A stretch of 64,000 bases of DNA from an uncultured virus (IMG/VR IMGVR_UViG_3300043473_000054) (IMGVR_UViG_3300043473_000054), one strand, 5' to 3'; positions 3,268-59,442 are shown, counted from the stretch's first letter. Translations and numbers: made by a program. The notes: generated by a model not told the origin, from the sequence alone.

Positions 3268-4188
3268 ATGGCAAACACGGACTTCGACCCTCGCGCCCAG
3301 CCGCAGCCGCTGTTCGCTGGCAACAATCTGCTCGGCACTGCGCAGGGCATGTTCGGCGGCCTGCGACGCGGCTTCCGGGCGGGCGGCCAGGCGCTGCATC
3401 CCTACTCCAACCGGCTGATGCTGGCCGGGCTCGGCATGCTCGGCGGCGGGCCGCGGGATGCGATGAAGGGACTGGTGGCGGGCTCGGCGCTGGATACGGA
3501 GGATGCCGATCGGCGGAAGCTCAATGAAGCTATCCAGGGGCTGATGGACGACACAAGCGGCACTGGCCTTCTTGCCAAGGCATCTCCAGCAGAGAGAGCT
3601 TACCTGCTGGCGTCTCCGCCGACGCTGAGCAAGGTAATTGCGGACCAGATGTCGCCACCGAGCGCGGGCGTTCAGGTCTTTGCCGGCGACTATAAAGTCC
3701 CGACTGGCTATAGGCCAGCCGATCCGAACAACCCAGATGCGGGTGTTGAGCCCATTCCCGGCGGTCCGGCGGAGCAATTGTCGGGAGATTTGGCAGGGCG
3801 CATCGGCTTGGCAGATAGTTTTCTGGGCGAGGCTCCAGCCATACGGACGAAGATCGTTGGCGGAGAGGCTACCGGCCTAGTGGATCGCACGCAGGCGGGA
3901 TGGAACAGTTCTTCGACACAGGCTGAAGTGCGCCGCAAGATATTGTCCGGCGTCGATGCGTTAAAACGCATGTTGAGTGGAGCCGGACTGCCAATTGCTG
4001 AGCAGGCTGAATATGAGATGCGCTATCTCCCGTCCTACACTGACGATGCAGCCTCTGCCGCTTCAAAGCTCGATCAATTGACGATGGAGTTGAAGAAAAC
4101 CAAGGAAATGGTTTTGCGCGGGCGGGGCGGCGCGGATGAACCGCAATCGAGCGGTGCCGATCTCAAAAAGCAATATGGGCTCGAATAG
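3268..4188 (+). CDS. Putative DNA-ejection protein (constant N-terminus, variable C-terminus)
   Basis: First ~75 aa shared with 45165..46250; podovirus ejection-gene position. Confidence 0.6.
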   Translation: MANTDFDPRAQPQPLFAGNNLLGTAQGMFGGLRRGFRAGGQALHPYSNRLMLAGLGMLGGGPRDAMKGLVAGSALDTEDADRRKLNEAIQGLMDDTSGTGLLAKASPAERAYLLASPPTLSKVIADQMSPPSAGVQVFAGDYKVPTGYRPADPNNPDAGVEPIPGGPAEQLSGDLAGRIGLADSFLGEAPAIRTKIVGGEATGLVDRTQAGWNSSSTQAEVRRKILSGVDALKRMLSGAGLPIAEQAEYEMRYLPSYTDDAASAASKLDQLTMELKKTKEMVLRGRGGADEPQSSGADLKKQYGLE

Positions 4189-4190
4189 CC

Positions 4191-5801
4191 ATGGCTGACC
4201 CGCTCGATCTTCCGCGCATCAAGCGCAATATTTCCAAGATGATCGACCTCGGCGCGCCCAAGGCTGACATAGACCGATACCTCGCAGAGGAAGGGACAAC
4301 GCCTGAAGCAATCCGTGGTGCGCCTCTCCATGCGCCTGCACCTGATCGCATCTCGGGAGCCTTCGAGGCCGCTCAACCGGTCCGCCAGGTGGACAAGATC
4401 GTGGAGCCAAGGCGCGGCCTGTTCACGAGCCGTAACCGCCTTGGCGACGTGAGCTTCATCCCGCCCGCGCTGCAAGACCTCTACGGAGCGACCGAGACAG
4501 TTGGCGGTGTCTTGCGGGGCGACGTTCCAGCAATGGTGCCCGACACCGGACAGGGCGTCACCAACCCGCAAGTGGAAAGCGCAGCAAAGACGATCGGTGC
4601 GGCGGCCTTGCCGGTCAACCCGGCTTTCCGGGCGGGCGATTTGGCGATACCGGGAATGATGCGAGCCCCGCTGCGCAAGGCAGCGCCTAAAATACCGACA
4701 AGGGAGGAATTGTATCAGGTCGGGGATGCCGGCTATGATCGCGCCCGAGGTATGGGGGTAGACTACAATCCCAGCTTCGTTGCCAACCTAGCCGCACAAA
4801 CTCAAGCTGCCTTGGATCGCGATGGCTTCAGGATCAAAAACGCCCCCAATACGCTCAACGTCCTCCGCGATCTCCAACGCATCCCAAAGACAGGTCCGGG
4901 CGAAAGATCCATCGTCCAGCTTGACGACCTTGAGACAGCGCGAAAGGCACTCCGCAGGATACCCAAAGGCCCCTACTACAACCAGGACAGAGAGGCAGCG
5001 CGGCGCGTCATTGCCGCAATTGATCAGTTCGCTGAAGAGCCTCCTGCGGCGGGGGTTGTGGCTGGATCCGCTGATTTCCAAAGAGCAGAGCAAAGCGCTG
5101 GAAGCGGAGTATTGGGCAACACGCCAGGCGGTGGCCGAGGAGGCTTTGCACAGCAGGCGCAGCAAATCGCGGAAGATCGAGCCCGACAGGCTGGAGCCAT
5201 CCAGAAAGAAGCCCGAGCCAACTGGGCCGCAATGGAACGATCAAAGGAAGTTGCCGGAAAGCAGAAGTATGCCCAATGGCGAGCCTGGGCATCAAACTCC
5301 GGCGCAAATATCGACAACAACCTACGAAATCGCGTTACCGATCTCCTCATCGACATCGACAAAGGACGGATCAAGGGTTTTTCTAAAGCGGAGCAAGACG
5401 AGCTTATAGGCTTCGTCAAGGGCTCGAAAACCCGCAACTTTTCCCGCAAGGTAGCCAACCTTCTCGGCGGTGGTGGCGGCTTGGGAGCACTGCTTACCGG
5501 CGGTGTTGCAGGAGCTTATTACGGAATGCCGGGGGCTCTTGCGCTGCCAGTGGTGGGAGTTGGTACCAAGGTGGCGGAAAACGCTCTTGCTCGCAGCGCA
5601 ATGCGCAAGCTGGACGAGACAGTCCGTAAACGCTCCCCGCTCTTTGACCAGCGGCTGGCACTGTCACCCTCTGCGCCACTGACGGCCGAGGCAAGGGCGG
5701 CGGCGTTACGGGCGTTGGCGGCTGGGGGGCCGTCGCCCCTAACAGTCTACCTCAACGCCAACGAGCGCAAACGCTTCATGGGCGGCCCTCTTATTCGATA
5801 G
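4191..5801 (+). CDS. Putative DNA-ejection/transfer protein
   Basis: Same slot as 46247..47902 with weak C-terminal similarity and a Gly-rich hydrophobic tail. Confidence 0.6.
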   Translation: MADPLDLPRIKRNISKMIDLGAPKADIDRYLAEEGTTPEAIRGAPLHAPAPDRISGAFEAAQPVRQVDKIVEPRRGLFTSRNRLGDVSFIPPALQDLYGATETVGGVLRGDVPAMVPDTGQGVTNPQVESAAKTIGAAALPVNPAFRAGDLAIPGMMRAPLRKAAPKIPTREELYQVGDAGYDRARGMGVDYNPSFVANLAAQTQAALDRDGFRIKNAPNTLNVLRDLQRIPKTGPGERSIVQLDDLETARKALRRIPKGPYYNQDREAARRVIAAIDQFAEEPPAAGVVAGSADFQRAEQSAGSGVLGNTPGGGRGGFAQQAQQIAEDRARQAGAIQKEARANWAAMERSKEVAGKQKYAQWRAWASNSGANIDNNLRNRVTDLLIDIDKGRIKGFSKAEQDELIGFVKGSKTRNFSRKVANLLGGGGGLGALLTGGVAGAYYGMPGALALPVVGVGTKVAENALARSAMRKLDETVRKRSPLFDQRLALSPSAPLTAEARAAALRALAAGGPSPLTVYLNANERKRFMGGPLIR

Positions 5802-16635: not shown

Positions 16636-17658
16636 TCATATTTTACTGCGGTCGCGGCGAACCTGCGGGGCCAGATCATCGAACTCCAGCGCACTCGCAG
16701 CGCGTCTCAGGTGATCAGGTTGGAAACGGGCATATGCCTGGAACGTGACCCGCTCATTCGAGTGTCCGAGGTATTGGCTGATCTCGCTTATGGACACGCC
16801 ATCTTCCGCCATATGGATCGCAGCAGATCTTCGGAGATCATGCGGCGATACGTGCTCCAGCCCAGCACGCTGCGCGGCGACTCTCAGGCCGCGCTTGACG
16901 CTCTTCACCGGCCTCCCGGCCCATTCTATCACCCAGTCCGTCAGAGCGCCCTGGCGGGCCTCCTGAAGGGCAGCGCGAGCGGTCCGCAGCATGGGGACTA
17001 TGGCGCGGCCTTTGTGGGGGGCGGATAGCGTAGGGTCGCGAAGATCAATTCGCCCTGTCTCGAAATCACAGCGGTCCCATGTAAGTCCAAGCAATGCAGC
17101 ATTTCGGGCGGCAGTCGTATAGGCGAGGATTCCGTAGAGCCGGATATGCGGTAAGTGTGCGTTATCGAATAGCGCACGGACCTGCTCTCGGGTGAGGTGT
17201 CGCTCTCGGGGCCTTGGCTTGGGCGGTCTTTTGATGTGCGGGGCACGGTCGATCAGCCCTTGCTTCTCGGCCCAGACGAGCACCATCCGGAGGTGTCCGA
17301 GTTCGGTATGGATTGTGCCGGGCTTAATACCGTCACGGAGACGTGCGTCAATGTGGGCACGGCAGTCGGCAACCGTAACAGAATGAGCCTCCATCGGCCC
17401 AAAGCGATCTCGTAGAGCCTTCCAAGTGTATCGCATCGTCCCTGTAACGGCGCGACCTTCCTTATCCTGAACATATGCGCTCCACAGTTCCTCGACCGTC
17501 GTTCCCTTCGGCCGCGTCAGCTCGGCGTAGAGCGCTGGCGCAAGCCGTTCAGCCTCGCTCGCGCTAGTGGTTCCAAGCGAGTAACGGTGCCGCTTTCCGT
17601 CTCGCCACCAGGTGAGGCAGAGCCGTCCGTTGAGCCGTCCGATGCGGTATTCCGGCAT
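16636..17658 (-). CDS. int: Tyrosine integrase
   Basis: R..HDLRR..LGH..Y catalytic motifs; start at MPEYRIG by comparison with 58423..59442. Confidence 0.95.
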   Translation of the reverse strand: MPEYRIGRLNGRLCLTWWRDGKRHRYSLGTTSASEAERLAPALYAELTRPKGTTVEELWSAYVQDKEGRAVTGTMRYTWKALRDRFGPMEAHSVTVADCRAHIDARLRDGIKPGTIHTELGHLRMVLVWAEKQGLIDRAPHIKRPPKPRPRERHLTREQVRALFDNAHLPHIRLYGILAYTTAARNAALLGLTWDRCDFETGRIDLRDPTLSAPHKGRAIVPMLRTARAALQEARQGALTDWVIEWAGRPVKSVKRGLRVAAQRAGLEHVSPHDLRRSAAIHMAEDGVSISEISQYLGHSNERVTFQAYARFQPDHLRRAASALEFDDLAPQVRRDRSKI

Positions 17659-17828
17659 GCGATGAACTCCTCCACGGCGTCTGACGGTATGCGGAGCAGC
17701 TTGCCGCCAAGCCGGAAGGCGCGCAACTGGCCTGCCGCGACGAGGTTGCGGATGTGCCGCTCCGAGCACATCCACTCGCGCGCCAAAGCGGCTGGCGTGT
17801 AGACTGAGCGGCTCGGAGCGGCGGCCAT
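17517..17828 (-). CDS. xis: Excisionase-type HTH protein
   Basis: YTPAALAREW..HIRNLV..G.L.AFRLG motif; overlaps int start. Confidence 0.8.
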   Translation of the reverse strand: MAAAPSRSVYTPAALAREWMCSERHIRNLVAAGQLRAFRLGGKLLRIPSDAVEEFIACRNTASDGSTDGSASPGGETESGTVTRLEPLARARLNGLRQRSTPS

Positions 17829-17830
17829 TG

Positions 17831-17992
17831 TCAGTTACAGTAAGTCTGATTGCCGAGTTGCTGGCATGTGATGCGATTGCCCTGACTGTCGGAGCAGTAG
17901 GTAAATTGCCCGATCTGCTGACAGGAGACCCCGGCCCACGCATTGCTCGCCAACAGGCAGGCAATCGCTGCACTCAAAAACACTCTACGCAT
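17831..17992 (-). CDS. Small secreted Cys-repeat protein
   Basis: Signal peptide plus two CQQxGxxTYC repeats. Confidence 0.65.
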   Translation of the reverse strand: MRRVFLSAAIACLLASNAWAGVSCQQIGQFTYCSDSQGNRITCQQLGNQTYCN

Positions 17993-28777: not shown

Positions 28778-29125
28778 ATGACATTCCAACCCGGTAATCA
28801 ATTGGCGAAAGCCAATGGCGTTCTGAAAAAGCCGCGCATCGTCACGCAAAGGCTTATCGCTGAACTCAATGCGACAGACGAAACCAACATCCCAAAACTC
28901 CATCGCCTCGCAAACGCTTTGCTCGACAAGGCGCTTGAAGGTGATGTGGCAGCCATCAAGGAAGTTATGGATCGCGTCGAGGGCAAAGTCCCGCAGCCCA
29001 TGAGCGGCGATCCAGACAATCCCCTCGTCATCCAGCACGTCACCAGAACCATCGTCCACGCAGATCCAAACCAGCGCAGCAACCCTATCGCCATAGTCGA
29101 TGCTGGCAATTCCAGAGCCGCTTGA
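28778..29125 (+). CDS. Terminase small subunit-like protein
   Basis: FQPGN..; KALEGDVAAIKEVMDRVEGKV; precedes TerL. Confidence 0.7.
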   Translation: MTFQPGNQLAKANGVLKKPRIVTQRLIAELNATDETNIPKLHRLANALLDKALEGDVAAIKEVMDRVEGKVPQPMSGDPDNPLVIQHVTRTIVHADPNQRSNPIAIVDAGNSRAA

Positions 29126-30410
29126 CGGCAACCTCGACATCAAGACGGCGCCCGTCTTCGAGCCGCTCCTCGAGCCAGCCCGATACAAAGGCGCCTACGG
29201 AGGCCGCGGCTCTGGCAAGTCACACTTCTTCGCGGAGGCCCTCGTCGAGGAGTGCATCGTCCACCCAGGCACCGCAGTCGTCTGCATCCGCGAGGTGCAG
29301 CGTACTCTCACGCAATCCGCCAAGCGCCTTATCGAGCAGAAGATCGCGCAGCTCGGCGTCGGCCCGCTGTTTCGCATCCTCGACGACCGCATAGAGGCGC
29401 CGGGCAAAGGGCTGATCATCTTTCAGGGCATGCAGGATCACACGGCGGAGTCCATCAAGAGCCTGGAAGGCTTCCGTATCGCCTGGATAGAGGAGGCACA
29501 GACGCTCTCGCATCGCTCCCTCGCGCTGCTTCGTCCGACAATTCGTGCCGAGAACTCCGAAATATGGGCATCCTGGAACCCGCGCCGCAAGTCAGACGCA
29601 ATCGACGAGTTCCTGCGCCAGCAGAAGCCGCCCGGCGCAGTCGTCGTCGAGGCGAATTGGCGGGACAACCCCTGGTTCCCCGAAGTTTTGGTCTCAGAGC
29701 GTGAAATTGACCAAGAACGCTATCCAGAGCGGTATGATCACATCTGGGAAGGTGGCTATGCGAAGGCGTTCGAGGGCGCTTATTTCGCGGCCGGCCTCAA
29801 CGAGGCCAAGGCGCAGGGACGAATTGGGCGAGTGTCCGCTGACCCGCTACTACCGCTCAGAGCCTTTTTTGACCTGGGAGGCTCAGGGGCTTCCGCCGAT
29901 GCCATGGCGATCTGGATTGTTCAGTGGGTCGGACAGGAAATCCGCGTCCTCGACTACATCGAGGGCATGGGCCAGGTGCTCGCCTACTACGTCGACGAGC
30001 TGCGCCAGCGCAAATACGACAAGGCCATCTGCTACCTCCCGCACGACGGCGTGAACGCTAACGCCATCACCGGCAAGCGGTATGAAGACCATCTGCGGGA
30101 GGCAGGCTTCTCCGTCGAACCGCCAGTGAAAAACCAGGGCAGGGGCGCCGCCATGATGCGAGTGGAAGCGGTGCGGCGGCTATTCCCGCGCATGTGGTTC
30201 AACGAGGCGACGACAGAGGCGGGAAGGGACGCCCTGGGCTATTACCACGAGCGCAGGGACGACGATCGGCAGTTGGGCCTCGGGCCGGAGCATGATTGGA
30301 GCAGTCATGCCGCGGACGCATTCGGCTTGATGGCTATCTGCTACGAGGAGCCGTCTCGGTCGGCGGGCTTCGGACGCAAGTTGGTGTATCAGAGGCTTGG
30401 CATCGTCTGA
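29100..30410 (+). CDS. terL: Terminase large subunit (PBSX-like)
   Basis: GGRGSGKS, WIEEA, DLG, HDWSSHAADAF. Confidence 0.95.
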   Translation: MLAIPEPLDGNLDIKTAPVFEPLLEPARYKGAYGGRGSGKSHFFAEALVEECIVHPGTAVVCIREVQRTLTQSAKRLIEQKIAQLGVGPLFRILDDRIEAPGKGLIIFQGMQDHTAESIKSLEGFRIAWIEEAQTLSHRSLALLRPTIRAENSEIWASWNPRRKSDAIDEFLRQQKPPGAVVVEANWRDNPWFPEVLVSEREIDQERYPERYDHIWEGGYAKAFEGAYFAAGLNEAKAQGRIGRVSADPLLPLRAFFDLGGSGASADAMAIWIVQWVGQEIRVLDYIEGMGQVLAYYVDELRQRKYDKAICYLPHDGVNANAITGKRYEDHLREAGFSVEPPVKNQGRGAAMMRVEAVRRLFPRMWFNEATTEAGRDALGYYHERRDDDRQLGLGPEHDWSSHAADAFGLMAICYEEPSRSAGFGRKLVYQRLGIV

Positions 30411-30524
30411 TCCCATATGCGCGCGCCTGCTGATACCTACGTGAAAGTGCTAAAGGCTGCGCGTGTGCCCGCGCGGTGTAGGAACTGGTTTATAAGTATT
30501 ATAACTAACTGCGCGCGCGAGACC

Positions 30525-30809
30525 CTATTGAGACGGCATGTTCTCGATCAGGGCCTGCAGGTCGGGAGGGAGTTGATCCCTGCGCCTGCCAAATCCCTGC
30601 TGGCGTTCCCATGCATGCCTCGGAGCATGCCGGCGCTTGCTGGGGATGCCGAAGTGAAAGAGGACAACGCGCACAGTCGTGCCGGAAATACCAAAATGCT
30701 TGGCGACATCCTTAACCGTCATGTCGGTGGTCAGAAACAGGCGGCAGAGTGCGATATTGCGCTCTCGCCAAGCAGCCTCTGCTTTGGCCGATGTGATCCA
30801 GTCGCTCAC
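30525..30809 (-). CDS. Antisense HTH protein
   Basis: MTVKDVAKHFGISGTTV HTH; CATAAT 7 nt before GTG. Confidence 0.6.
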   Translation of the reverse strand: MSDWITSAKAEAAWRERNIALCRLFLTTDMTVKDVAKHFGISGTTVRVVLFHFGIPSKRRHAPRHAWERQQGFGRRRDQLPPDLQALIENMPSQ

Positions 30810-31022
30810 GGGGGCCATTATGCCACGAAGACGCCGGGGCGCTAGCCGCTGCGTCTGCCAGCGCATGAGCCGCACCTGGCCGGCGCGCTGGGGGCTATGG
30901 CGGCGGGTGTCCTGGTAGAGTTCACGGCCCTCCCGGCCGCGCAAAACCGGGCCGAATGCACCCAGCCTGAGCGCACTCCGACACGGTCGGCCGGGAGGGC
31001 CACCAGCACAAGGAACCAAACA

Positions 31023-31193
31023 ATGTCTGATCCGAAGGAAGACGAATACACCGAGCCGGGCGAGAGCAAGGCCGGCCGTGGCGGGATTGTATCTCCCGGC
31101 GGCACGCAGCCAAAGCCCTCGGAAGACCCGCGCAAGGATAGCGGGCTGCACGACGAGCCTCCTGCACCCAACCAAGACCTGCCGAAAGAGTAG
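31023..31193 (+). CDS. 56-aa Pro/acidic protein
   Basis: AAGGA RBS; directly before portal. Confidence 0.5.
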   Translation: MSDPKEDEYTEPGESKAGRGGIVSPGGTQPKPSEDPRKDSGLHDEPPAPNQDLPKE

Positions 31194-31196
31194 CGC

Positions 31197-31766
31197 GTGG
31201 CCAAGCTGTCCGTCTCCGAGGTGCAGGCCATCCTCAAGGGCGAGAAGAGCGACGCGCTTAGCGCAGCCGAGAGCAGCAAGCTCTCCGAGGAGCGGGCGCG
31301 GGCGCTCGACTACTACCAGGGCGACATGGCACGCGACATGCCCGCTCCTGCCGATCGCTCCAAGGCCGTCTCGTCCGACGTGGCGGATGCCGTCGAGGGC
31401 CTGATGCCGTCGATGATGGAGGTGCTGCACGGCGGCGACGACGTGGTGGAGTTCGTCCCGACAGGTGCGGAGGACGAAGAGGCGGCGCAGCAGGAAACCG
31501 ACTACGTCAATTATGTATTCACGCAGAAAAACAATGGGTTTCTTATCGACTATACCTTTGTGAAGGATGCGCTGCTGTCGAAGGTCGCGATCGTGAAAGT
31601 ATATTGGGAAGACAAGGAAGAGAGCATTGAGGAGAGCTTCTGGGGCCTGCCGGAGGCGGCCTACGGAATGCTGAAGCAGGCAAAGGACATCGACATCATC
31701 GAGCACACTGAGCGGCAGGGCATTCCCGGCCAGCAGCCGCGTGACGAGCAGCAGGCCGCTTACTGA
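31197..31766 (+). CDS. Portal protein, N-terminal segment
   Basis: R..ALDYY.G..S.DVAD.VE..MPS..F.P..ED..AA.QETDYVNYVF..DALL.K..VKVYW. Confidence 0.8.
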   Translation: MAKLSVSEVQAILKGEKSDALSAAESSKLSEERARALDYYQGDMARDMPAPADRSKAVSSDVADAVEGLMPSMMEVLHGGDDVVEFVPTGAEDEEAAQQETDYVNYVFTQKNNGFLIDYTFVKDALLSKVAIVKVYWEDKEESIEESFWGLPEAAYGMLKQAKDIDIIEHTERQGIPGQQPRDEQQAAY

Positions 31767-32146
31767 TGGGCAAGCGCAAGGGCGATCTTCCGCCATCTAG
31801 AGAGAGGCGTAAAGACAGGATACGTCGGCTGAATAAAGCGACGCTGATTGAGATGGTATTTGCCGAGGAGAAGAGGACCCACTTTTGGTTTGAGGAGAAT
31901 AAGCACCACAAGGATGCGCTGAAGCAGATGAAGCGTGAACTGGACCGCGCAAAGCACGACCTGCATGTGCATGGCGTGAATGGCGACTACCTCGGCATGT
32001 CGGTGCGTCTGGAGGTCGCCCAAGCTGAACTGCGCGGTGCCAAGGCAGACCTGAAGATCCTTGAGGAGGCACTCGCCGACAAGCAGGCCGGCAATCCCAA
32101 TTGGGAGAACGTGGCCGTGATGAAGATGCGCAAGGCGCGCTACTGA
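31766..32146 (+). CDS. Coiled-coil hypothetical protein inserted between portal segments
   Basis: TGATG coupling at both ends; flanked by TACTGATGG repeats. Confidence 0.7.
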   Translation: MGKRKGDLPPSRERRKDRIRRLNKATLIEMVFAEEKRTHFWFEENKHHKDALKQMKRELDRAKHDLHVHGVNGDYLGMSVRLEVAQAELRGAKADLKILEEALADKQAGNPNWENVAVMKMRKARY

Positions 32147-34062
32147 TGGCCCTGCCTCCCTATCCCATGCAGCCTCCCGGGCCTCCCGGCGCAACCCCCG
32201 GGCTTGACCCGCGGGCCATGCCTATGGGGCCTCCTGGCGGCATGGGACCGCCACCGCCGGGAGGCCCGCCAGGGCCACCAGGGATGCCGCCAGGCGGGCC
32301 GATGCGTCCTCCCGGCCCTCCGCCGCCTCCTGGCGCTCCACCGCCTCCAGCGGGCATGCAGGGGCCTCCTGGCCCACCTCCAATGCCTCCACCTCCTCCG
32401 CCCATGCCGGAGACGGTGCATGACGTGAAGATCAGCCGCATCCGCAAATACGGCTGCGCCAGGGTCGAGAACGTGCCGCCGGAGGAGTTTGGCGTCTCGC
32501 GGCGGCAACGCTCCGTCATGCTGCGCGACTGCGACTACTGCTACCACGAAGTCAGGAAGACGGAGGCCGAGCTTATCGCTGCCGGCTACGACAAGGAGCA
32601 GGTCAAGGCGCTGCCCGACTATGCCGGCGATGGCACGACGGAGGAGATCGCCCGCGACACGGTGGACGACAATGCATTGTCGGGGTCCGAGGGGCTGAAC
32701 AAGGCCAACCGGCAGATCCGCGTCACCGAGCACTACGTGATGATGGACTATGAGGGCGACGGCAAGCCGCGCCGCTATCGGGTGACGACGGCTGGCAGCG
32801 GTAGCGAGATCCTGAAGCGCAAGGGCCGCCCGGAGATCGTGCCGGACATGGTGCGCTTTGCCGCCATGACGCCGTTCATCAATCCGCACCGCTTCTATGG
32901 CACGTCCATTGCCGACCTCGTCATGGACATTCAGAGGATTAAGACTGCGTTACTCCGGCAATTGCTCGACAACGTCTATTTTTCCAACAACCAGCGCTTG
33001 GAAGTCGCTGAGGATGGGGCGACAAAGGACACGATCGACGACGTGCTGTCGAATAGGGTCGGCGGCATCATCCGCACCCGTCGCATCGGCTCGGTCGCAC
33101 CTGTCCCGAACCAGCCGATCGGAAGCTTCGTGTTTCCCATGCTGGAATACATGGACACGCTGCGGGAGTGGCGCACGGGTGTGACGCGGCAGGGCCAGGG
33201 CCTCGACCCGAACGCCTTGCAGAACATCGGCGAGCGGGCCGTGCTCGACGCGCAGAACGCCGCCCGCGCCAAGATGAAGCTCATCGCTCGCATCTTCGCC
33301 GAGACGGGCATTCGGGAGATGTTCTGGCTGCTGCACGCGACGATCCGCCAGAACGCCAGTGAGGCCGAGACAGTGAAGCTGCGCGGCCAGTGGGTGAAGG
33401 TAGACGCGCAGGAATGGCGCGAGCGCAACGATCTCACCATCAACGTCGGGCTTGGCTCCGGCGACAAGAGCCAGGAAATCATGGTGCTGCGCGAGATCAT
33501 GCAGATCCAGGGCAACGCCATGACGAGCCCGAAGATGACCGGGCTCGCTGGGCCGCAGCAGGTTTACAACACGGTCAAGCAACTCACGCGCAAGGCGGGG
33601 CTGAACTCACCTGATCCCTACTTCACCGATCCGAGCAAGACGCCTCCGCAGCCTCCCGAGCCTTCTCCCGAGGAGAAGAAGGGCATGGCGGAGATGCAGT
33701 TGAAGCAGGCTGACATGCAGATGCGTCAGCAGGGCGCTATGGCCGACGCTCAGATGCGCCAACAGCAGGCGCAGCAGGACATGGCCATGCAGCAGGCCAA
33801 GGCGCAGCAGGATGCCGCGCTGCAGCGTGAGAAGTTCATGCTCGACGCGCAGCTTCAGCGTGAGCAGATGCAGGCCGACGCGGAATTGAAGCGGGCGCAG
33901 ATTGATGCCGAATTGATGCTGAAGCGGGAGACGCTCGCGGCGGAACTGGCATTGAAGCGCGAACTTGCGATGGCTGGGCTGCAGCTCAAAGCCTCAATGC
34001 CGCCTCCGGGCTCGAATGGCGGCGGGACGAGCGGCGTGCACATAGGCGGCGAGCCAGGGTAG
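32146..34062 (+). CDS. Portal protein, C-terminal segment with poly-Pro leader and Gln-rich coiled-coil
   Basis: ENVPPEEF, PHRFYG.SIADLVMDIQ.IKTALLRQLLDN, RTGVT, IARIFAETG. Confidence 0.85.
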   Translation: MALPPYPMQPPGPPGATPGLDPRAMPMGPPGGMGPPPPGGPPGPPGMPPGGPMRPPGPPPPPGAPPPPAGMQGPPGPPPMPPPPPPMPETVHDVKISRIRKYGCARVENVPPEEFGVSRRQRSVMLRDCDYCYHEVRKTEAELIAAGYDKEQVKALPDYAGDGTTEEIARDTVDDNALSGSEGLNKANRQIRVTEHYVMMDYEGDGKPRRYRVTTAGSGSEILKRKGRPEIVPDMVRFAAMTPFINPHRFYGTSIADLVMDIQRIKTALLRQLLDNVYFSNNQRLEVAEDGATKDTIDDVLSNRVGGIIRTRRIGSVAPVPNQPIGSFVFPMLEYMDTLREWRTGVTRQGQGLDPNALQNIGERAVLDAQNAARAKMKLIARIFAETGIREMFWLLHATIRQNASEAETVKLRGQWVKVDAQEWRERNDLTINVGLGSGDKSQEIMVLREIMQIQGNAMTSPKMTGLAGPQQVYNTVKQLTRKAGLNSPDPYFTDPSKTPPQPPEPSPEEKKGMAEMQLKQADMQMRQQGAMADAQMRQQQAQQDMAMQQAKAQQDAALQREKFMLDAQLQREQMQADAELKRAQIDAELMLKRETLAAELALKRELAMAGLQLKASMPPPGSNGGGTSGVHIGGEPG

Positions 34063-34423: not shown

Positions 34424-35512
34424 ATGTCTGAGCCAACCCAACCCGACGCGGGAGCGCCGGCACCCGAGCCTATTGCGCCCGTTCCCGAGCCTTCTACTCC
34501 TCCTCCATCTCCGCCGCCCTCCGACGCGCCAATTACCGCGCGCGAGGCCGCGGATCTCATTTCCGGTAAGACGGACAAACCTTCGGCACCAGATGGTGCT
34601 GACGCCGCCCCCGAAAGGCCCAGCGGCGAGACTGACGGTAGCGACGACCCTTCTCAGAAGCCCATCGACGCCCCGAGGTCATGGACGAAAGCCGACAAGG
34701 AAGCTTTTGCGAGCCTCCCCCGAGACACCCAGGAACGCATCCTGGCGCTCGACAGGACACGCGAGCTGGAATTGCGGCGCGGCCAGAACGAAGCCGCCGA
34801 GCAGCGAAAGGCCGCCGAGGCCTTGGCGCAGCAGGCGGAGCAGGCACAAGCGCAAGCACGATGGCAATACGAGCAGTCGCTGCCGCAGCAGGCGCTGTTG
34901 CTGGATGCCGAGTATCGAAAAGAGTTCGGAACGCCCTCCTGGGACGATCTGCAGGACTGGCAACGTAACGATCCGCTTCGATACCAGGCATGGGACTTGG
35001 CCTACAAGCGGCTGACGCATGCGTCAGCCGAACTGCAGGCGCAACAGGCCCAGCAAGCCCAGCAGCAGCAACTGCAGCATCAGCAGTTCATGCAGAACGC
35101 GGAGGCGTGGAGGGCTGAGGAGGCGCAGAAGTTCGCCGACAAGGCTCCGGAGTGGAAAGATCCAAAAGCCTATCCCGGCTTGGTCGCAGGGATGATGGAT
35201 TATCTGGGAGAGGTTGGGTTCGAGCAGGACTTTCTGCAACGGGCCGCAACCGAGTTCCTGCCAATCCAGATCCACGACCACCGCTTCCAGATGCTCGCAT
35301 GGGATGGCTACCAGTATCGACAGGCCCTTAAGGCCACCAAGTCACCGTCACGCGCACCTGTTCCACCTGTCCAGCGTCCGGGCAGCGCTCCCGCCAAGGG
35401 AGAGGCTCAAGAGGCTCGGTTCAAAGACCTCAACCGCCAATTGGACCGCACTGGCAGTCTCAAGGATGCCGCAAGGCTTATTGCGGCAATGAACGGCAGT
35501 CGGTCCCCGTAA
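34424..35512 (+). CDS. Capsid scaffolding protein
   Basis: Pro/acidic N-terminus, helical Gln-rich body, RTGSLKDAA tail; precedes capsid. Confidence 0.8.
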   Translation: MSEPTQPDAGAPAPEPIAPVPEPSTPPPSPPPSDAPITAREAADLISGKTDKPSAPDGADAAPERPSGETDGSDDPSQKPIDAPRSWTKADKEAFASLPRDTQERILALDRTRELELRRGQNEAAEQRKAAEALAQQAEQAQAQARWQYEQSLPQQALLLDAEYRKEFGTPSWDDLQDWQRNDPLRYQAWDLAYKRLTHASAELQAQQAQQAQQQQLQHQQFMQNAEAWRAEEAQKFADKAPEWKDPKAYPGLVAGMMDYLGEVGFEQDFLQRAATEFLPIQIHDHRFQMLAWDGYQYRQALKATKSPSRAPVPPVQRPGSAPAKGEAQEARFKDLNRQLDRTGSLKDAARLIAAMNGSRSP

Positions 35513-35522
35513 AGGACGGACA

Positions 35523-35670
35523 ATGACAGTTCCAACAGATGTCTTTGCTACCTATCAGTCGATCGGTAACAGAGAAGACCTCAGTGACACCATTTATCGT
35601 ATCAGCCCTACGGAAACTCCCTTCCTCAGTGGTGTAGAGAAAGTAAAAGCCAAGGCAGTGAACCACGAGT
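35523..35670 (+). CDS. Major capsid protein, exon 1
   Basis: AAAGGA RBS; GNREDLSD.IY.ISPTETPFLS..NHE (DUF5309/SU10-like). Confidence 0.9.
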
Positions 35671-36654
35671 AAACTTGATCTGCTCGTGTAAAACCGGGTG
35701 AATTGTCTGGGAAGCCCTTAGAGCCATCGACACTACAGCGTAGCTGGCAACGGCAAGCGCGAATGTTCGAAAAGTCAATGGATTGGGTAATCAGCAGCCA
35801 AGCGCCGCATGTAAGCCGGAGACGGCCTAGGGGCGGTGACGGTTCAACGACTAGCTCCCGCGCGAAAGCAGTAATGGAGCCGCGAGTGCCCGGCCTTATG
35901 TCCAGCTATCCAGAACTTTCTGATGTTTTCTACGGAGGAACCAACCGGCTTCGGTGTAGAGCCACCGGAGAACGTCTCGATCACGCCAGGAACCGATCAG
36001 CCTGCCGTGGCCAGAAGTAAACTTGGAATGAGCCAGCGCTTGGCCTGTGTGGCGTAAGACCGCCTTGCATATGCCATCGAGTACGTCTGCTGTTCCTGTA
36101 AATGCAAACTGGCGCGGCCCGATCCATCCGTCACCATCAAGCAGCCCCCTGAGAAAATGTCGTTCTACATCGGCAGGGATTAGGGGATAGGTGAGGGTCT
36201 TGGATTTGCCCGGCACGATGCCTAGCGAAGCCAAGTCACCAATCAGCTTTCGGCTGCAAAAGGTGATGACGCGCTGGGGTTTGGTGTTGGGATAACCTCC
36301 TCGGCTGATTTTGGCGGCAATAGGAGCACCGCTACCCATTGCCAAGCGCATTTCTTCGAGGATGTGAACGTCGGTTTCCGAGACGCAACACGCAACCCAC
36401 TTGCCGCTCTTTGCCACGTAACCGTCAGCAGCCAAGAACCCCAGAAAATAGGCTTTTGGCTCGGAGTTGACGGAGGCAAAGAAATCGCAGTCAAGAGGAT
36501 AGGCACTCGAACGACGCGCGCGGAGTTGGGGCAGAATTTCCATCTGGAAATGATAGCTGGATCGTAAGTGAAGATATAGTTCTGATCTCCGCTCGAAAGA
36601 CGGAGAGGGCGGCAGAAATGACCGCCCCGGCCCGCAAGGGCTGGTAACACATTG
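35671..36654 (+). ncRNA. Group I intron (984 nt)
   Basis: P1 CACGAGU/GCUCGUG with U.G; P, Q, R (35842-53), S (36571-) elements; P3; P9 hairpins; terminal G; removal restores HEWQ. Confidence 0.92.
35896..36543 (-). CDS. LAGLIDADG homing endonuclease, antisense within the intron
   Basis: AYFLGFLAADG and HFLRGLLDGDG motifs. Confidence 0.9.
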   Translation of the reverse strand: MEILPQLRARRSSAYPLDCDFFASVNSEPKAYFLGFLAADGYVAKSGKWVACCVSETDVHILEEMRLAMGSGAPIAAKISRGGYPNTKPQRVITFCSRKLIGDLASLGIVPGKSKTLTYPLIPADVERHFLRGLLDGDGWIGPRQFAFTGTADVLDGICKAVLRHTGQALAHSKFTSGHGRLIGSWRDRDVLRWLYTEAGWFLRRKHQKVLDSWT

Positions 36655-37463
36655 GGCAAGTTCAAAACCTCGCCGCCGCGAGCACGGCTAATGCGGTGCT
36701 CGAAGGCGACGACGCGACGATCGATGCCGCCACTCCAACCGTGCGGCTCGGCAACATCGCGCAAATCTCCGACAAGGTGGCGGCAGTCACCGGCACGGAG
36801 AACGCCATCGACCGGGCCGGGCGTGACAACGAGCTGTCCTATCAGCTTGCGCTGAAAGGGCAGGAGCTAAAGCGCGACATGGAGAGCATCCTGCTCTCCA
36901 ATCAAGCGAAAAACGCGGGCGCAATCGGCACGGCAAGAAAGACCGCGTCGGTGCTGGCATGGATCGGCACCAACGACGCATTCGGCGCATCGCCGGGTGC
37001 GTCTCCGGTCACTCTCGACGGGCTCGCTACAAGGACTGACGGCGTGCAGCGGGCTTTCACCGAGGCGCTTCTGAAGCCGGTCCTGCAGCTCATCTGGAAC
37101 GAGGGCGGCGATCCTGACGTGATCATGGTCGGGGGCGCAAACAAACAGGCGTTCAGCACGTTTACTGGTCGCACGGGAACGGCCGGGCCGAATGAGCAGA
37201 CATCGACGAAGAAAATCGTCAACAATGTCGAGATTTACGAGGGAGACTTCGGCACGCTGAAGGTGGTCGCCAACCGCTTCATGCGGACGAGGGACTGTCT
37301 TGTTCTTGAGATGGACAAGTGGGCCGTAGCATACCTCCGCAACATGCGGCGGTGGGACTTGGCCAAGACTGGTGACTCCGAGAAAACACAGATCTTGTGT
37401 GAGTATAGTTTGGAAAGCCGCAACGAAAAAGCTTCGGGTGGCGTTTTCGACCTGACACCGTAA
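36655..37463 (+). CDS. Major capsid protein, exon 2
   Basis: WQVQNLAAA..NAVLEGDD..RLGN..QIS.K..ELKRDME..YEGDFG..LAKTGDSEK..NEKA; spliced product 318 aa. Confidence 0.92.
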
Positions 37464-37560
37464 CACCCATCGCCGCCACGCCTTCAGTCCCGTTCACACT
37501 GGACCGAGAGCGAGCACCTCCTGTGGCGTGGCGGCGACCTTAAAGCAGGGAGGAGAACAC

Positions 37561-38319
37561 ATGGCCAGGCCGAAGGGCTCGAAGAACAAGCCGAAGGCCC
37601 GCCCTCCGGCGAAAGCCAAGGCGAAGCCCAGGCCACAGGCCAAGGCTGAGCCGCCCGATTGGCTGCGCAAGGCAATGGCGCCGACCAAGACACCGCAAAA
37701 ACGTGGGCCGAGGCCCACGAGAGTGAAGGAAAAAGCTCAAACACTGGCGAAAGCCAAGAGAGGAAAGAAACCCATGGCGAACAAGCCGCACTACGACCCG
37801 ATGGACGATCCAGACCTGCGGGCTGGCGACGCGAAGGGCGATGCACCCGGCTGGGAGAGCCCGATCAAGCCGCCGGATACGAGCCTGAAGCCCGGCAATC
37901 AGCTTCCCGGTGCGCCCGACAACACTCTGCCCGGCGCTGGCGGCAAGCCCGACCAGTCCCTGCCGGGTAACCCGATCAAGCCTGGCAAGCCCGCCCCGCT
38001 TCCTGGCGGTGGCGTGCGTCCCGACAATGTGCTGCCGGAAGTGCCGGAGGAAGCACCTCAATTCGACGAGGTGCAGTCGGGCGGGGACATCCCCGACGAG
38101 AACATTCAGATGCTGATTGCCGGCACGCTCGGCGGCTCTGGGGACAATCACGCCAGCGCAAAGCGTATCGTGGAGCGCATGCACCAGGCCGAGTGGGTCG
38201 TCACCAAGGCGCTCGATGCCGGGAGCGGCGACACAGCCAAGGCCAGGAAGGCCAAGGCAGACAAGGACGCCAAGGCCAAGGCAGACAAGGAAGAGGCGGA
38301 TGCCAAGCGCAAGGCTTGA
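37561..38319 (+). CDS. Lys/Pro-rich protein (possible internal start at 37774)
   Basis: GGAGGAG RBS; RPKGSKNK motif; PDNxLPG repeats. Confidence 0.6.
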   Translation: MARPKGSKNKPKARPPAKAKAKPRPQAKAEPPDWLRKAMAPTKTPQKRGPRPTRVKEKAQTLAKAKRGKKPMANKPHYDPMDDPDLRAGDAKGDAPGWESPIKPPDTSLKPGNQLPGAPDNTLPGAGGKPDQSLPGNPIKPGKPAPLPGGGVRPDNVLPEVPEEAPQFDEVQSGGDIPDENIQMLIAGTLGGSGDNHASAKRIVERMHQAEWVVTKALDAGSGDTAKARKAKADKDAKAKADKEEADAKRKA

Positions 38320-57535: not shown

Positions 57536-57609
57536 GGGCCCTTAGCTCAACGGGAGAGCGTCGCCTCGACACGGCGGAGACGTAGGTTCGACCCCTACAG
57601 GGCCCACCA
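57536..57609 (+). tRNA. tRNA-Val(GAC)
   Basis: GGGCCCT/AGGGCCC acceptor stem, GCTC/GAGC D arm, TCGCC-TCGACAC-GGCGG, GTAGG-TTCGACC-CCTAC, ACCA. Confidence 0.92.
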
Positions 57610-58051
57610 CCTTCCAGCTTCTTCCGCTGCGAATATAGCTGACTGTCGCCTTGGCAATACCGAACCGAGCGGCTAGTGCCGTAATTGTTAGGCCGTCAGG
57701 GTTCTGGCGAATGTAGCTGACATCCTCTGCGGTCAGCGTCGTTCTTCCATGGCGTTCACCCCTAGCTATTTGGCCGCGCTCCACCGCATCGTTGCTGTTG
57801 TCCTGTGCCGTGCCTGTAAGAAGGTGACGGGGATTGCAGCACGGTTTGTTATCGCAACGGTGACGAACGATGAGCCCGTCAGGAACTGGGCCATGGATAA
57901 GCTCATAGGCCACTCGGTGAGCCATTGTGCCTCTGAAGCGGCCATATCCGTTGCCGTTCTTATTGCCGATCCAAGGCCAACACTGGAAGGGTGTCGAGCC
58001 ATCCACCCTTGACCAGAATGCAGCGATATCAATAGGTGCCAGATCAGCCAT
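57542..58051 (-). CDS. HNH homing endonuclease overlapping the tRNA antisense
   Basis: CWPW.G..GYG.F..AHRVAY..VRHRCDNKPCCNPRHL; GGAGGAG RBS. Confidence 0.9.
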   Translation of the reverse strand: MADLAPIDIAAFWSRVDGSTPFQCWPWIGNKNGNGYGRFRGTMAHRVAYELIHGPVPDGLIVRHRCDNKPCCNPRHLLTGTAQDNSNDAVERGQIARGERHGRTTLTAEDVSYIRQNPDGLTITALAARFGIAKATVSYIRSGRSWKVVGPVGVEPTSPPCRGDALPLS

Positions 58052-58080
58052 CGTCGCTCCTCCTACGGGCGGCTTGGTTA

Positions 58081-58115
58081 GGGTCAGGAGCCGGTTTGCA
58101 GACCGTTCCTGACCC
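58081..58115. promoter_or_regulatory. Strong hairpin in the HNH leader
   Basis: GGGTCAGGA/TCCTGACCC plus CGGT/ACCG stems. Confidence 0.5.
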
Positions 58116-58189
58116 GCCTTTCTATCTCATCTAGGCGGCTATTTCACTTAGAACGTAGCGGCTTCTCTGGACGTTTGCGGAATGCGCGC

Positions 58190-58426
58190 CTATCCCTTCG
58201 CTTTCGGCTCGAAGCGATCTTTAAGTGTTTTGTACATATCTTCGGCATACATCGGATGCCGACCACCGCCTTGAGAGCGGGTTAGAAATTCCTCTTCACT
58301 GAAGAGTTTCCGCAATATGTTGTCGATGCAGGATTTGTGATGCGCGATGTTCACGTTGTGAGCGTAAACAGAAAAGAGCGCGTCCTCTAGATCATCTATC
58401 CGCTGCTTCATCTGTTGCGGCGTCAT
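58190..58426 (-). CDS. Hypothetical protein coupled to int
   Basis: ATGA overlap with integrase stop; lower GC. Confidence 0.6.
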   Translation of the reverse strand: MTPQQMKQRIDDLEDALFSVYAHNVNIAHHKSCIDNILRKLFSEEEFLTRSQGGGRHPMYAEDMYKTLKDRFEPKAKG

Positions 58427-59442
58427 GGCACTTTTCTCCTTATCTTCGCTGGCTCCAGGTCGTCGAACTCCAGCGCACTGGCAGCCCGCCGTAGGTGATC
58501 TGGTTGGAAGCGGGCGTAGGTGGAGAAAGTCACCCGCTCATTCGAGTGTCCGAGGTACTGGCTGATCTCACTTATCGGCACGCCGTCTTCAGCCATATGG
58601 ATAGCGGCACTTCTCCTGAGATCATGCGGTGATACATGCTCCAGCCCGGCACGCTGCGCCGCGACTCTCAGGCCGCGCTTGACGCTCTTCACCGGCCTCC
58701 CGGCCCATTCTATCACCCAGTCCGTCAGAGCGCCCTGGCGGGCCTCCAGAAGGGCAGCGCGAGCGGTCCGCAGCATGGGGACTATGGCGCGTCCTTTGTG
58801 TGGCGCGGTAAGTTCAGGATCACGGAGGTCGATCCGTCCTGTCTCGAAATCGCAACGCTCCCACCTGAGTCCAAGCAGCGCACTATTCCGGGCAGCAGTC
58901 GTGTAAGCCAGGATAGCGTAGAGGCGGACGTGGGGGAGGTTTGCGTTATCGAAAAGGGTGCGGACTTGCTCTCTGGTGAGGTGTCGCTCTCTGGGGCGGG
59001 GCTTGGGCGGTCTTTCGATGTGCGGGGCACGGGCGATCAGTCCTTGCTTCTCAGCCCATCGAAGCACCATTCGCAAGTGACCAAGTTCGGTGTGGATGGT
59101 TCCGTCTTTGATGTTGTTACGGCGACGTTCGTCAATGTGTGCGCGGCAGTCGGCAACCGTAATAGCAGCACCCTCCATCGGCCCCAGCCGATCTCGTAGA
59201 GCCTTGAACGTGTGGCCCATAGTGACCGTGACAGCTCGTCCTTCCTTATCCCTGACATAGGCCCTCCATAACTCCTCGACCGTTGTTCCCTTCGGGCGCG
59301 TCAGCTCTGCGTAGAGCGCTGGCGCAAGGCGCTCAGCCTCGCTCGCGCTAGTGGTTCCAAGCGAGTAACGGTGCCGCTTTCCGTCTCGCCACCAGGTGAG
59401 GCAGAGCCGTCCGTTGAGCCGTCCGATGCGGTATTCCGGCAT
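58423..59442 (-). CDS. int: Tyrosine integrase
   Basis: Close homolog of 16636..17658. Confidence 0.95.
   Translation of the reverse strand: MPEYRIGRLNGRLCLTWWRDGKRHRYSLGTTSASEAERLAPALYAELTRPKGTTVEELWRAYVRDKEGRAVTVTMGHTFKALRDRLGPMEGAAITVADCRAHIDERRRNNIKDGTIHTELGHLRMVLRWAEKQGLIARAPHIERPPKPRPRERHLTREQVRTLFDNANLPHVRLYAILAYTTAARNSALLGLRWERCDFETGRIDLRDPELTAPHKGRAIVPMLRTARAALLEARQGALTDWVIEWAGRPVKSVKRGLRVAAQRAGLEHVSPHDLRRSAAIHMAEDGVPISEISQYLGHSNERVTFSTYARFQPDHLRRAASALEFDDLEPAKIRRKVP

Follow-up and report, generated by a model that had tools for sequence, protein, structure and literature searches.

The 64,000 nucleotides (nt) of DNA from an uncultured virus that are held in IMG/VR as IMGVR_UViG_3300043473_000054, and that are called here the window, very probably include a prophage capsid gene of the SU10 type which is split by a group I intron, with a single-chain homing endonuclease encoded on the opposite strand in the loop of the paired region P8. 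The intron interrupts the Trp codon of the conserved NHEW motif, and its self-excision from the late messenger RNA (mRNA) would yield a capsid protein of 318 amino acids (aa); exon 1 would be held by a P1 of 7 base pairs (bp) with U.G at the cut, and exon 2 by a P10 of 8 bp. The endonuclease would most likely cut intron-less NHEW alleles of related phages, and the repair would copy the intron into them (homing). A group I intron with an inverted LAGLIDADG gene in the major capsid gene had been proposed in a preliminary description of this DNA, and the proposal is borne out by Pfam, Rfam and homologues. This layout is already published once, for mycobacteriophage LittleE, and it recurs in uncultured phages; the most useful additions made here are the boundaries exact to the base, an independently confirmed variant of P7, a coexisting intron-less allele and the evidence for a lineage with the antisense gene in P8.

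The capsid gene is found in two pieces (Table 1). The open reading frame (ORF) 35523-35672 (49 aa) and the frame open over 36657-37463 match Pfam SU10_MCP (PF17236, profile length 292) in a collinear way, and the exons joined in silico from 35670 to 36655 give 957 nt and 318 aa with no internal stop. The first 49 residues, encoded by exon 1, are identical to those of the uninterrupted homologue P0002, whereas exon 2 is 95% identical to P0001 (318 aa, also uninterrupted) and 90% identical to P0002; the search with exon 2 retrieved thousands of capsid proteins of about 314-320 aa. At the junction these best homologues read AKAVNHEWQVQNLAAAS or NHEWQRQDL, and the joined frame reads NHE-W-QVQNL, exactly as the uninterrupted P0001 and P0003 do. 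Because the 3' side reads CATTG/GGCAA, only the cut 35670/36655 restores the frame and T/GG (Trp) followed by CAA, and the splice sites are thus fixed to the base. The junction obeys the group I rule, since the 5' cut follows a U and the 3' cut follows a G. The end of exon 1 (CACGAGT, 35670) and the terminal G of the intron given in the preliminary description are read directly in the sequence, and its spliced product, NHEWQVQNL within 318 aa, agrees with the joined frame and the uninterrupted homologues; likewise, its claim that a full-length capsid protein requires ligation at these sites is sustained by Pfam, Rfam, homologues and the joined frame.

Table 1. Coordinates of the intron, its host gene and other features of the window, with the source of each assignment.
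Feature	Positions	Strand	Remarks
Integrase	16636-17973	-	PHROG search
Large terminase	29100-30410	+	PHROG search; late gene
Portal	32101-34062	+	PHROG search; late gene
Scaffold	34424-35512	+	PHROG search; late gene
Capsid exon 1	35523-35670	+	49 codons and the T of the Trp codon; SU10_MCP positions 5-44, E 7.5e-8
P1 hairpin	35664-35688	+	CACGAGT (35664-35670) with GCTCGTG (35682-35688); U35670.G35682 at the 5' splice site
Group I intron	35671-36654	+	984 nt, subgroup IA-like, hairpin inserted between P7 and P3'; boundaries from frame and homologues
P3 5' strand	35694-35700	+	CCGGGTG, pairs with 35887-35893
P4-P5(abc)-P6 domain	35703-35840	+	Rfam alignment
R element, J6/7 and P7 5' strand	35841-35853	+	GGTTCAACGACTA; Rfam alignment
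P7.1-like hairpin between P7 and P3'	35854-35886	+	Insertion in the Rfam alignment; helix predicted
P3 3' strand	35887-35893	+	TGCCCGG
P8 5' strand	35895-35903	+	Rfam alignment; holds the complement of the endonuclease TAA stop (35896-35898)
Two-motif LAGLIDADG homing endonuclease gene	35896-36543	-	215 aa; antisense to the intron, inside the P8 loop
P8 3' strand	36559-36568	+	Rfam alignment
J8/7 and P7 3' strand (S element, 36571-36582)	36569-36584	+	TAGTTCTG, one U above the usual
P9 (GAAA loop), P9.1, P9.2 (GCAA loop)	36586-36643	+	RNAfold
Terminal G of the intron, 3' splice site	36654	+	Sequence, homologues, joined frame, X3 contig
Capsid exon 2	36655-37463	+	GG of the Trp codon, 268 codons and stop; SU10_MCP positions 47-292, E 2.4e-80
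Transfer RNA (tRNA)	57536-57606		Rfam, 62.4 bits

When positions 35500-36800 were searched alone, the covariance-model check proposed beforehand did find Rfam Intron_gpI (RF00028) at 35613-36605 on the plus strand (45.2 bits, E 5.8e-10), covering all 253 model positions, though under the curated gathering score of 50 bits. For this reason the search of the whole window at the gathering threshold was silent on the intron and returned only the tRNA. The alignment leaves a loop of about 620 nt in P8 and an insertion of 31 nt that separates P7 from P3'. The P1 pairing with U.G at the splice site, as first described, is seen in the sequence, and the hairpin is formed by RNAfold (z -3.5, with 1 of 200 shuffles as good); in the related locus L013 it covaries, CCATGAAT being paired with GTTCATG. 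The P1 loop (35672-35681) serves as the guide for P10: CAAGTT of exon 2 (36657-36662) is the complement of AACTTG (35672-35677), and the GG at 36655-36656 can pair with CT (35680-35681), so that GGCAAGTT of exon 2 pairs over 8 bp across a two-base bulge, a longer P10 than had been recognised at first. The exon 2 start reads CAAGTTCAA in the window, CAGGTGCAG in the intron-less loci L003 and L005 and CAGGTTCAG in the intron-less L004. The synonymous differences of the window from L003 improve P10, and these changes could be co-adapted or could have arrived with the intron.

P3 is read in the sequence just as the preliminary description gave it, and compensatory changes are found in four of its seven pairs among ten related cores. 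With these ten antisense-type cores (that of the window included, L419 excluded), RNAalifold recovers P3, P4, P5, P5a-c, P6 and the P7.1-like helix, with both-sided or compensatory change in 25 of 52 pairs, and all columns of the R element except one are invariant. The P9-P9.2 region is folded by RNAfold with z -5.0 (none of 200 shuffles as good). Taken by itself, 35694-35894 has a minimum free energy fold that does not surpass those of shuffles (z -0.8), which is expected of a core that is pseudoknotted.

The opposite strand of the P8 loop encodes a protein matching Pfam LAGLIDADG_3 (PF14528) in two stretches (30.9 bits against a cut-off of 22.5, E 3.2e-7), with the motifs LGFLAADGYV and LRGLLDGDGWI in one chain. 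Residues D40/G41 and D136/G137 are invariant in seven endonuclease sequences. A profile of the protein and six relatives has its best PDB match with 2dch, a putative homing endonuclease (E 2.1e-6), followed by weaker matches to I-MsoI, I-AniI and intein endonuclease domains; homologues share 88%, 50% and 41% identity, and relatives with as little as about 30% identity still have an intact ORF. Its location between the R and S elements, as well as the two motifs, had been anticipated correctly. The gene fills the loop, since its stop lies inside the P8 5' strand and its ATG only 16 nt from the P8 3' strand; in the sister intron of locus L165 the stop is likewise inside P8. The capsid-sense strand across the gene is not free of stops, and the plus-strand ORFs inside the intron are short and broken.

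Related to the homing process, 79 IMG/VR loci with related SU10-type capsid genes were compared: 73 are uninterrupted, five are interrupted and one could not be judged. The closest ones, at 97%, 92% and 85%, are all uninterrupted. Moreover, a contig from run X3 has 89 other exon-1 letters joined directly to 36655, with a depth of 23 against 10.3 for the intron form; it is an intron-less allele present beside the intron-bearing form in one sample. The coexistence of both alleles is as would be expected of an element still homing. The content of G+C is 0.47 in exon 1, 0.55 in the endonuclease gene and 0.60 in exon 2. The low value of exon 1 was considered as a footprint of co-conversion during homing and rejected, because it is common to the intron-less alleles (0.50-0.52).

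The interrupted loci are the window's own record, L006, L007, L013 and L010. L006/L007 and L013 have inserts of 832 nt (1666-2497) and 905 nt (1593-2497) at the same Trp codon as the window, with sense-strand LAGLIDADG genes of 222 and 240 aa. In contrast to the antisense gene in P8 of the window, these genes begin after the P5 5' strand behind a Shine-Dalgarno sequence, run through the core and stop in J8/7; P8 is a small hairpin, the P7.1-like insert is missing and P7 is canonical, all three unlike the window. P1, P3 and P8 covary among these introns and that of the window, P1 of L006 having the same letters as the window and that of L013 covarying. At its 3' end the L006 intron shares 95% identity over 80 nt with window intron positions 899-979 (P9 helices), whereas the middle differs and the capsid exons share 78%, which suggests recombination between introns. 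In L010 (IMG/VR record G005), whose capsid exon 2 is 96% identical, a different insert of about 958 nt (about 1482-2440) precedes the window's site by about 17 codons; within it are a sense-strand HNH gene of 283 aa (Pfam HNH, E 7.4e-7) and a weak Intron_gpI match of 16.9 bits. At E 0.01, Rfam had no match in L006, L010 and L013 when each was searched as a whole locus, and narrower searches gave weak partial matches of 21, 23.6 and 16.9 bits. Three intron/endonuclease combinations, at two sites, were observed in one SU10-type capsid family.

Several points weigh against the interpretation of a spliced intron with an active endonuclease, and those on the side of the backwards gene are considered first. 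A consensus scan of 35300-37600 found no sigma-70-like promoter site on either strand, so the endonuclease promoter signature of the preliminary description was not confirmed, and no Shine-Dalgarno sequence precedes the endonuclease ATG on inspection. The N-terminal helix-turn-helix domains of distant relatives are missing from the window protein. All this would be consistent with an ORF that no longer is an active homing endonuclease, being silent, decaying or only a splicing helper (maturase), and the mRNA maturase 2ab5 is indeed among the weak PDB profile matches (E 0.029). Nevertheless, such a loss of activity is unlikely: the 215-aa frame is intact with both motifs conserved, the 88%-identical relative has the same short start and likewise lacks the helix-turn-helix domains, and intron-less and intron-bearing alleles coexist. 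Run X5 contains a variant of the intron and the endonuclease gene in contigs of 302-396 nt, each with 29-48 differences (about 88% nucleotide identity), and among the differences listed inside the ORF 21 of 39 are at third positions when codons are read in the minus-strand frame (binomial p 0.0066), an enrichment which also argues against decay.

With regard to its expression, the gene points backwards, so it would be uncoupled from capsid transcription and a promoter would be needed in the 3' part of the intron or in exon 2. The motif TATCAT is located six bases upstream of the endonuclease ATG on the minus strand, without an accompanying -35 element, and it could give a leaderless mRNA. The endonuclease gene of L165 has AGGAG seven bases upstream of its ATG and the window has none, so the relatives do not share one expression solution. 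Two terminator-like sites were found in 35300-37600, no more than in shuffles. That antisense transcription might modulate splicing, another early suggestion, would be pure conjecture.

On the side of the ribozyme, splicing of the capsid intron is itself deduced from the sequence, the Rfam score lies below its cut-off, and the phage, integrated to judge by the integrase and tRNA of the window, could be defective. Besides, the P7 3' strand (36577-36584) reads TAGTTCTG where nine related introns read TAGTC; the G-C pair that binds guanosine is present, yet this strand carries one U more, as had already been pointed out, and this extra U beside the pair could weaken catalysis. From these observations it might be argued that the intron has lost splicing and persists as a relic in a defective prophage, with guanosine binding abolished by the extra U and no functional capsid protein produced. 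This is, however, very unlikely. The possibility of a read error, raised together with the variant, is refuted by contigs of two further studies that carry the extra T at 36580/36581 and are otherwise almost unchanged: a 1144-nt contig of run X2 over 35531-36674 has no differences, and a 1338-nt contig of X3 over 35400-36731 has one difference and no gaps. The extra T thus cannot be put down to faulty assembly of a single data set. It is also kept in the sister intron L165, in spite of 74% identity in the core and 54% in the endonuclease, and Intron_gpI reaches there 59.8 bits, above the cut-off; its conservation across this divergence makes it unlikely to be lethal. An X5 variant contig (29 differences in 373 nt) crosses the extra-U site without a gap, and neither exon is damaged, uninterrupted homologues matching them at 95% identity.

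In IMG/VR, exact matches to the 19-base S element including the extra U are limited to record G001 and one other contig, L165/G002. A 14-base pattern of the S element gave mostly chance matches in viral and genome collections, with either upstream motif in 10 of 229 loci and both only in the window's record, and when the 3' core was compared with phage genomes by blastn, nothing beyond chance-level matches of 31 nt was obtained.

Finally, that the capsid protein is made without splicing from an internal GTG at 36696 (255 aa) is extremely improbable, because, although the ORF 36696-37463 exists, exon 1 matches the conserved N-terminus of the family, this N-terminus is contiguous with the rest of the protein in 73 of the 79 related loci, and the frame is open and homologous from 36657, upstream of the GTG.

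The rarity of the layout implied by the preliminary description does not hold, in view of LittleE and of ten further loci. In a search of the endonuclease family, 80 metagenome and 80 viral loci were scanned with an nhmmer model of the 5' core. Of these 160, 28 have a core; it faces the endonuclease gene from the other strand in 13 and shares its strand in 15. In ten loci (L165, L142, L412, L416, L418, L419, L437, L439, L447 and L473, several of them near-duplicates) motifs similar to R and S bracket a related gene on the opposite strand, that is, the antisense-in-P8 arrangement. The host gene was examined in five of the ten (L165, L142, L416, L412 and L473; for L412 the match is given without the exact exon layout), and all five match phrog_1357, a family of major head proteins, not SU10. 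This is evidence that antisense-in-P8 introns form what appears to be a conserved lineage, located mostly in capsid genes. Among uncultured phages, the backwards LAGLIDADG gene in P8 recurs as a stable layout.

Some related arrangements were observed during this survey. In L150 (2592-3992, minus strand) a DNA helicase gene (phrog_1967) is split by an intron with a related LAGLIDADG gene that is antisense and located 3' of P7, as in LittleE, so the antisense layout is not limited to capsid genes. In L166/L165 (G002) one capsid gene of the phrog_1357 type seems to hold two introns around a mini-exon: a sense LAGLIDADG gene (L166, 678-1265) lies in the upstream one, whose 3' end is similar to P9-P9.2 of the window, and the downstream one is the antisense sister. 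The upstream intron (L166, 1-1450) has no Rfam match. In the capsid gene of the metagenome contig L142, the antisense-type intron is preceded, at a distance of a few hundred bases, by a second group I intron, without ORF (2433-2716, minus strand, 55 bits).

The closest known system is the capsid intron of LittleE, where splicing was demonstrated by reverse transcription-polymerase chain reaction and N-terminal sequencing and a LAGLIDADG gene lies on the bottom strand, according to the available text of Pope et al. (2013, PMC3706429); the GenBank record JF937101 annotates the joined capsid coding sequence and gene 14 on the minus strand. As far as that text goes, in both systems a temperate phage has its major capsid gene interrupted by a group I-type intron, exon 1 ends in U, the intron ends in G and a LAGLIDADG-type gene is antisense; the LittleE record gives no capsid family. 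Rfam Intron_gpI gives 30.7 bits in LittleE, and the core (L162, 3859-4062) lies directly before gene 14 (4065-4598), which places that endonuclease gene 3' of P9, whereas in the window it is in P8. The two endonucleases have no BLASTP similarity (E 3.3), and the host of LittleE is an actinobacterium whereas that of the window phage is most likely an alphaproteobacterium, judged only from the names on capsid homologues. A literature search, mainly in freely accessible journals, gave LittleE as the only phage case of a capsid intron with an antisense LAGLIDADG gene.

The endonuclease genes of the introns of phages T4 and SPO1 are of the GIY-YIG or HNH families, and they are located on the sense strand, in a peripheral loop. 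These classical group I introns (td, nrdB and nrdD of T4 and the DNA polymerase gene of SPO1) are self-splicing, interrupt phage protein-coding genes and are mobile in some cases by means of the encoded endonuclease, as in the reading proposed for the window, but they sit in genes of DNA metabolism instead of a capsid gene, following the available part of PMC3706429. The same source cites a capsid intron in the lactococcal phage Tuc2009. The endonuclease gene is also opposite to its host intron in the nuclear group I introns of ribosomal DNA with antisense His-Cys box genes, which differ from the window in being located in eukaryotic nucleolar rRNA genes, in the endonuclease family and in the use of spliceosomal introns and polyadenylation for expression (PMC9548176, available text).

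It is possible, but rather doubtful, that the backwards orientation is a selected design of a long-lived capsid-intron lineage (about 30% endonuclease identity with a constant layout), in which the endonuclease is transcribed apart from the strong late transcription of the capsid gene. If it were so, the enzyme could already be present in the lysogen or in early infection and would there cut the capsid gene of incoming intron-less relatives, which would serve both homing and competition between phages. Such a competition has been reported for the intron endonuclease of PhiPA3 in the accessible part of PMC11620839.

If the proposed splicing takes place, the capsid output of this phage would hinge on a step catalysed by RNA, and gene callers would give the capsid gene as two fragments or as a truncated one. 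The intron is one more indication that mobile group I introns settle repeatedly in major capsid genes, and it offers a natural system for asking how antisense endonuclease genes are expressed and what the effect of orientation is in very highly transcribed genes.

As regards its context, PHROG and Rfam searches reveal in the window a temperate phage in prophage form, encoding Erf, a methyltransferase and a primase-helicase as well as the integrase, and with the late genes ordered on the plus strand as terminase, portal, scaffold, capsid and then tail genes. IMG/VR record G001 (41,942 bp; CheckV 93% complete) is 100% identical across 35400-37500. The 1.7-kb gap between terminase and portal (30411-32100) contains only a 423-aa ORF on the minus strand (30525-31796), which has no PHROG match, no usable Atlas match and a weak helix-turn-helix Pfam match (E 0.0024); in DNA this rich in G+C it may not be a real gene, or else it could be another inserted element. 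The capsid gene is immediately followed by an ORF of 263 aa (37528-38319), rich in Lys, Ala and Pro and without PHROG match, which is a possible gene for a decoration or internal protein. The prophage region has at its far end (57536-59442), downstream of the tRNA, a second tyrosine-integrase gene (58423-59442, minus strand), and the tRNA with this integrase could represent a second integrated element or the neighbourhood of the attachment site.

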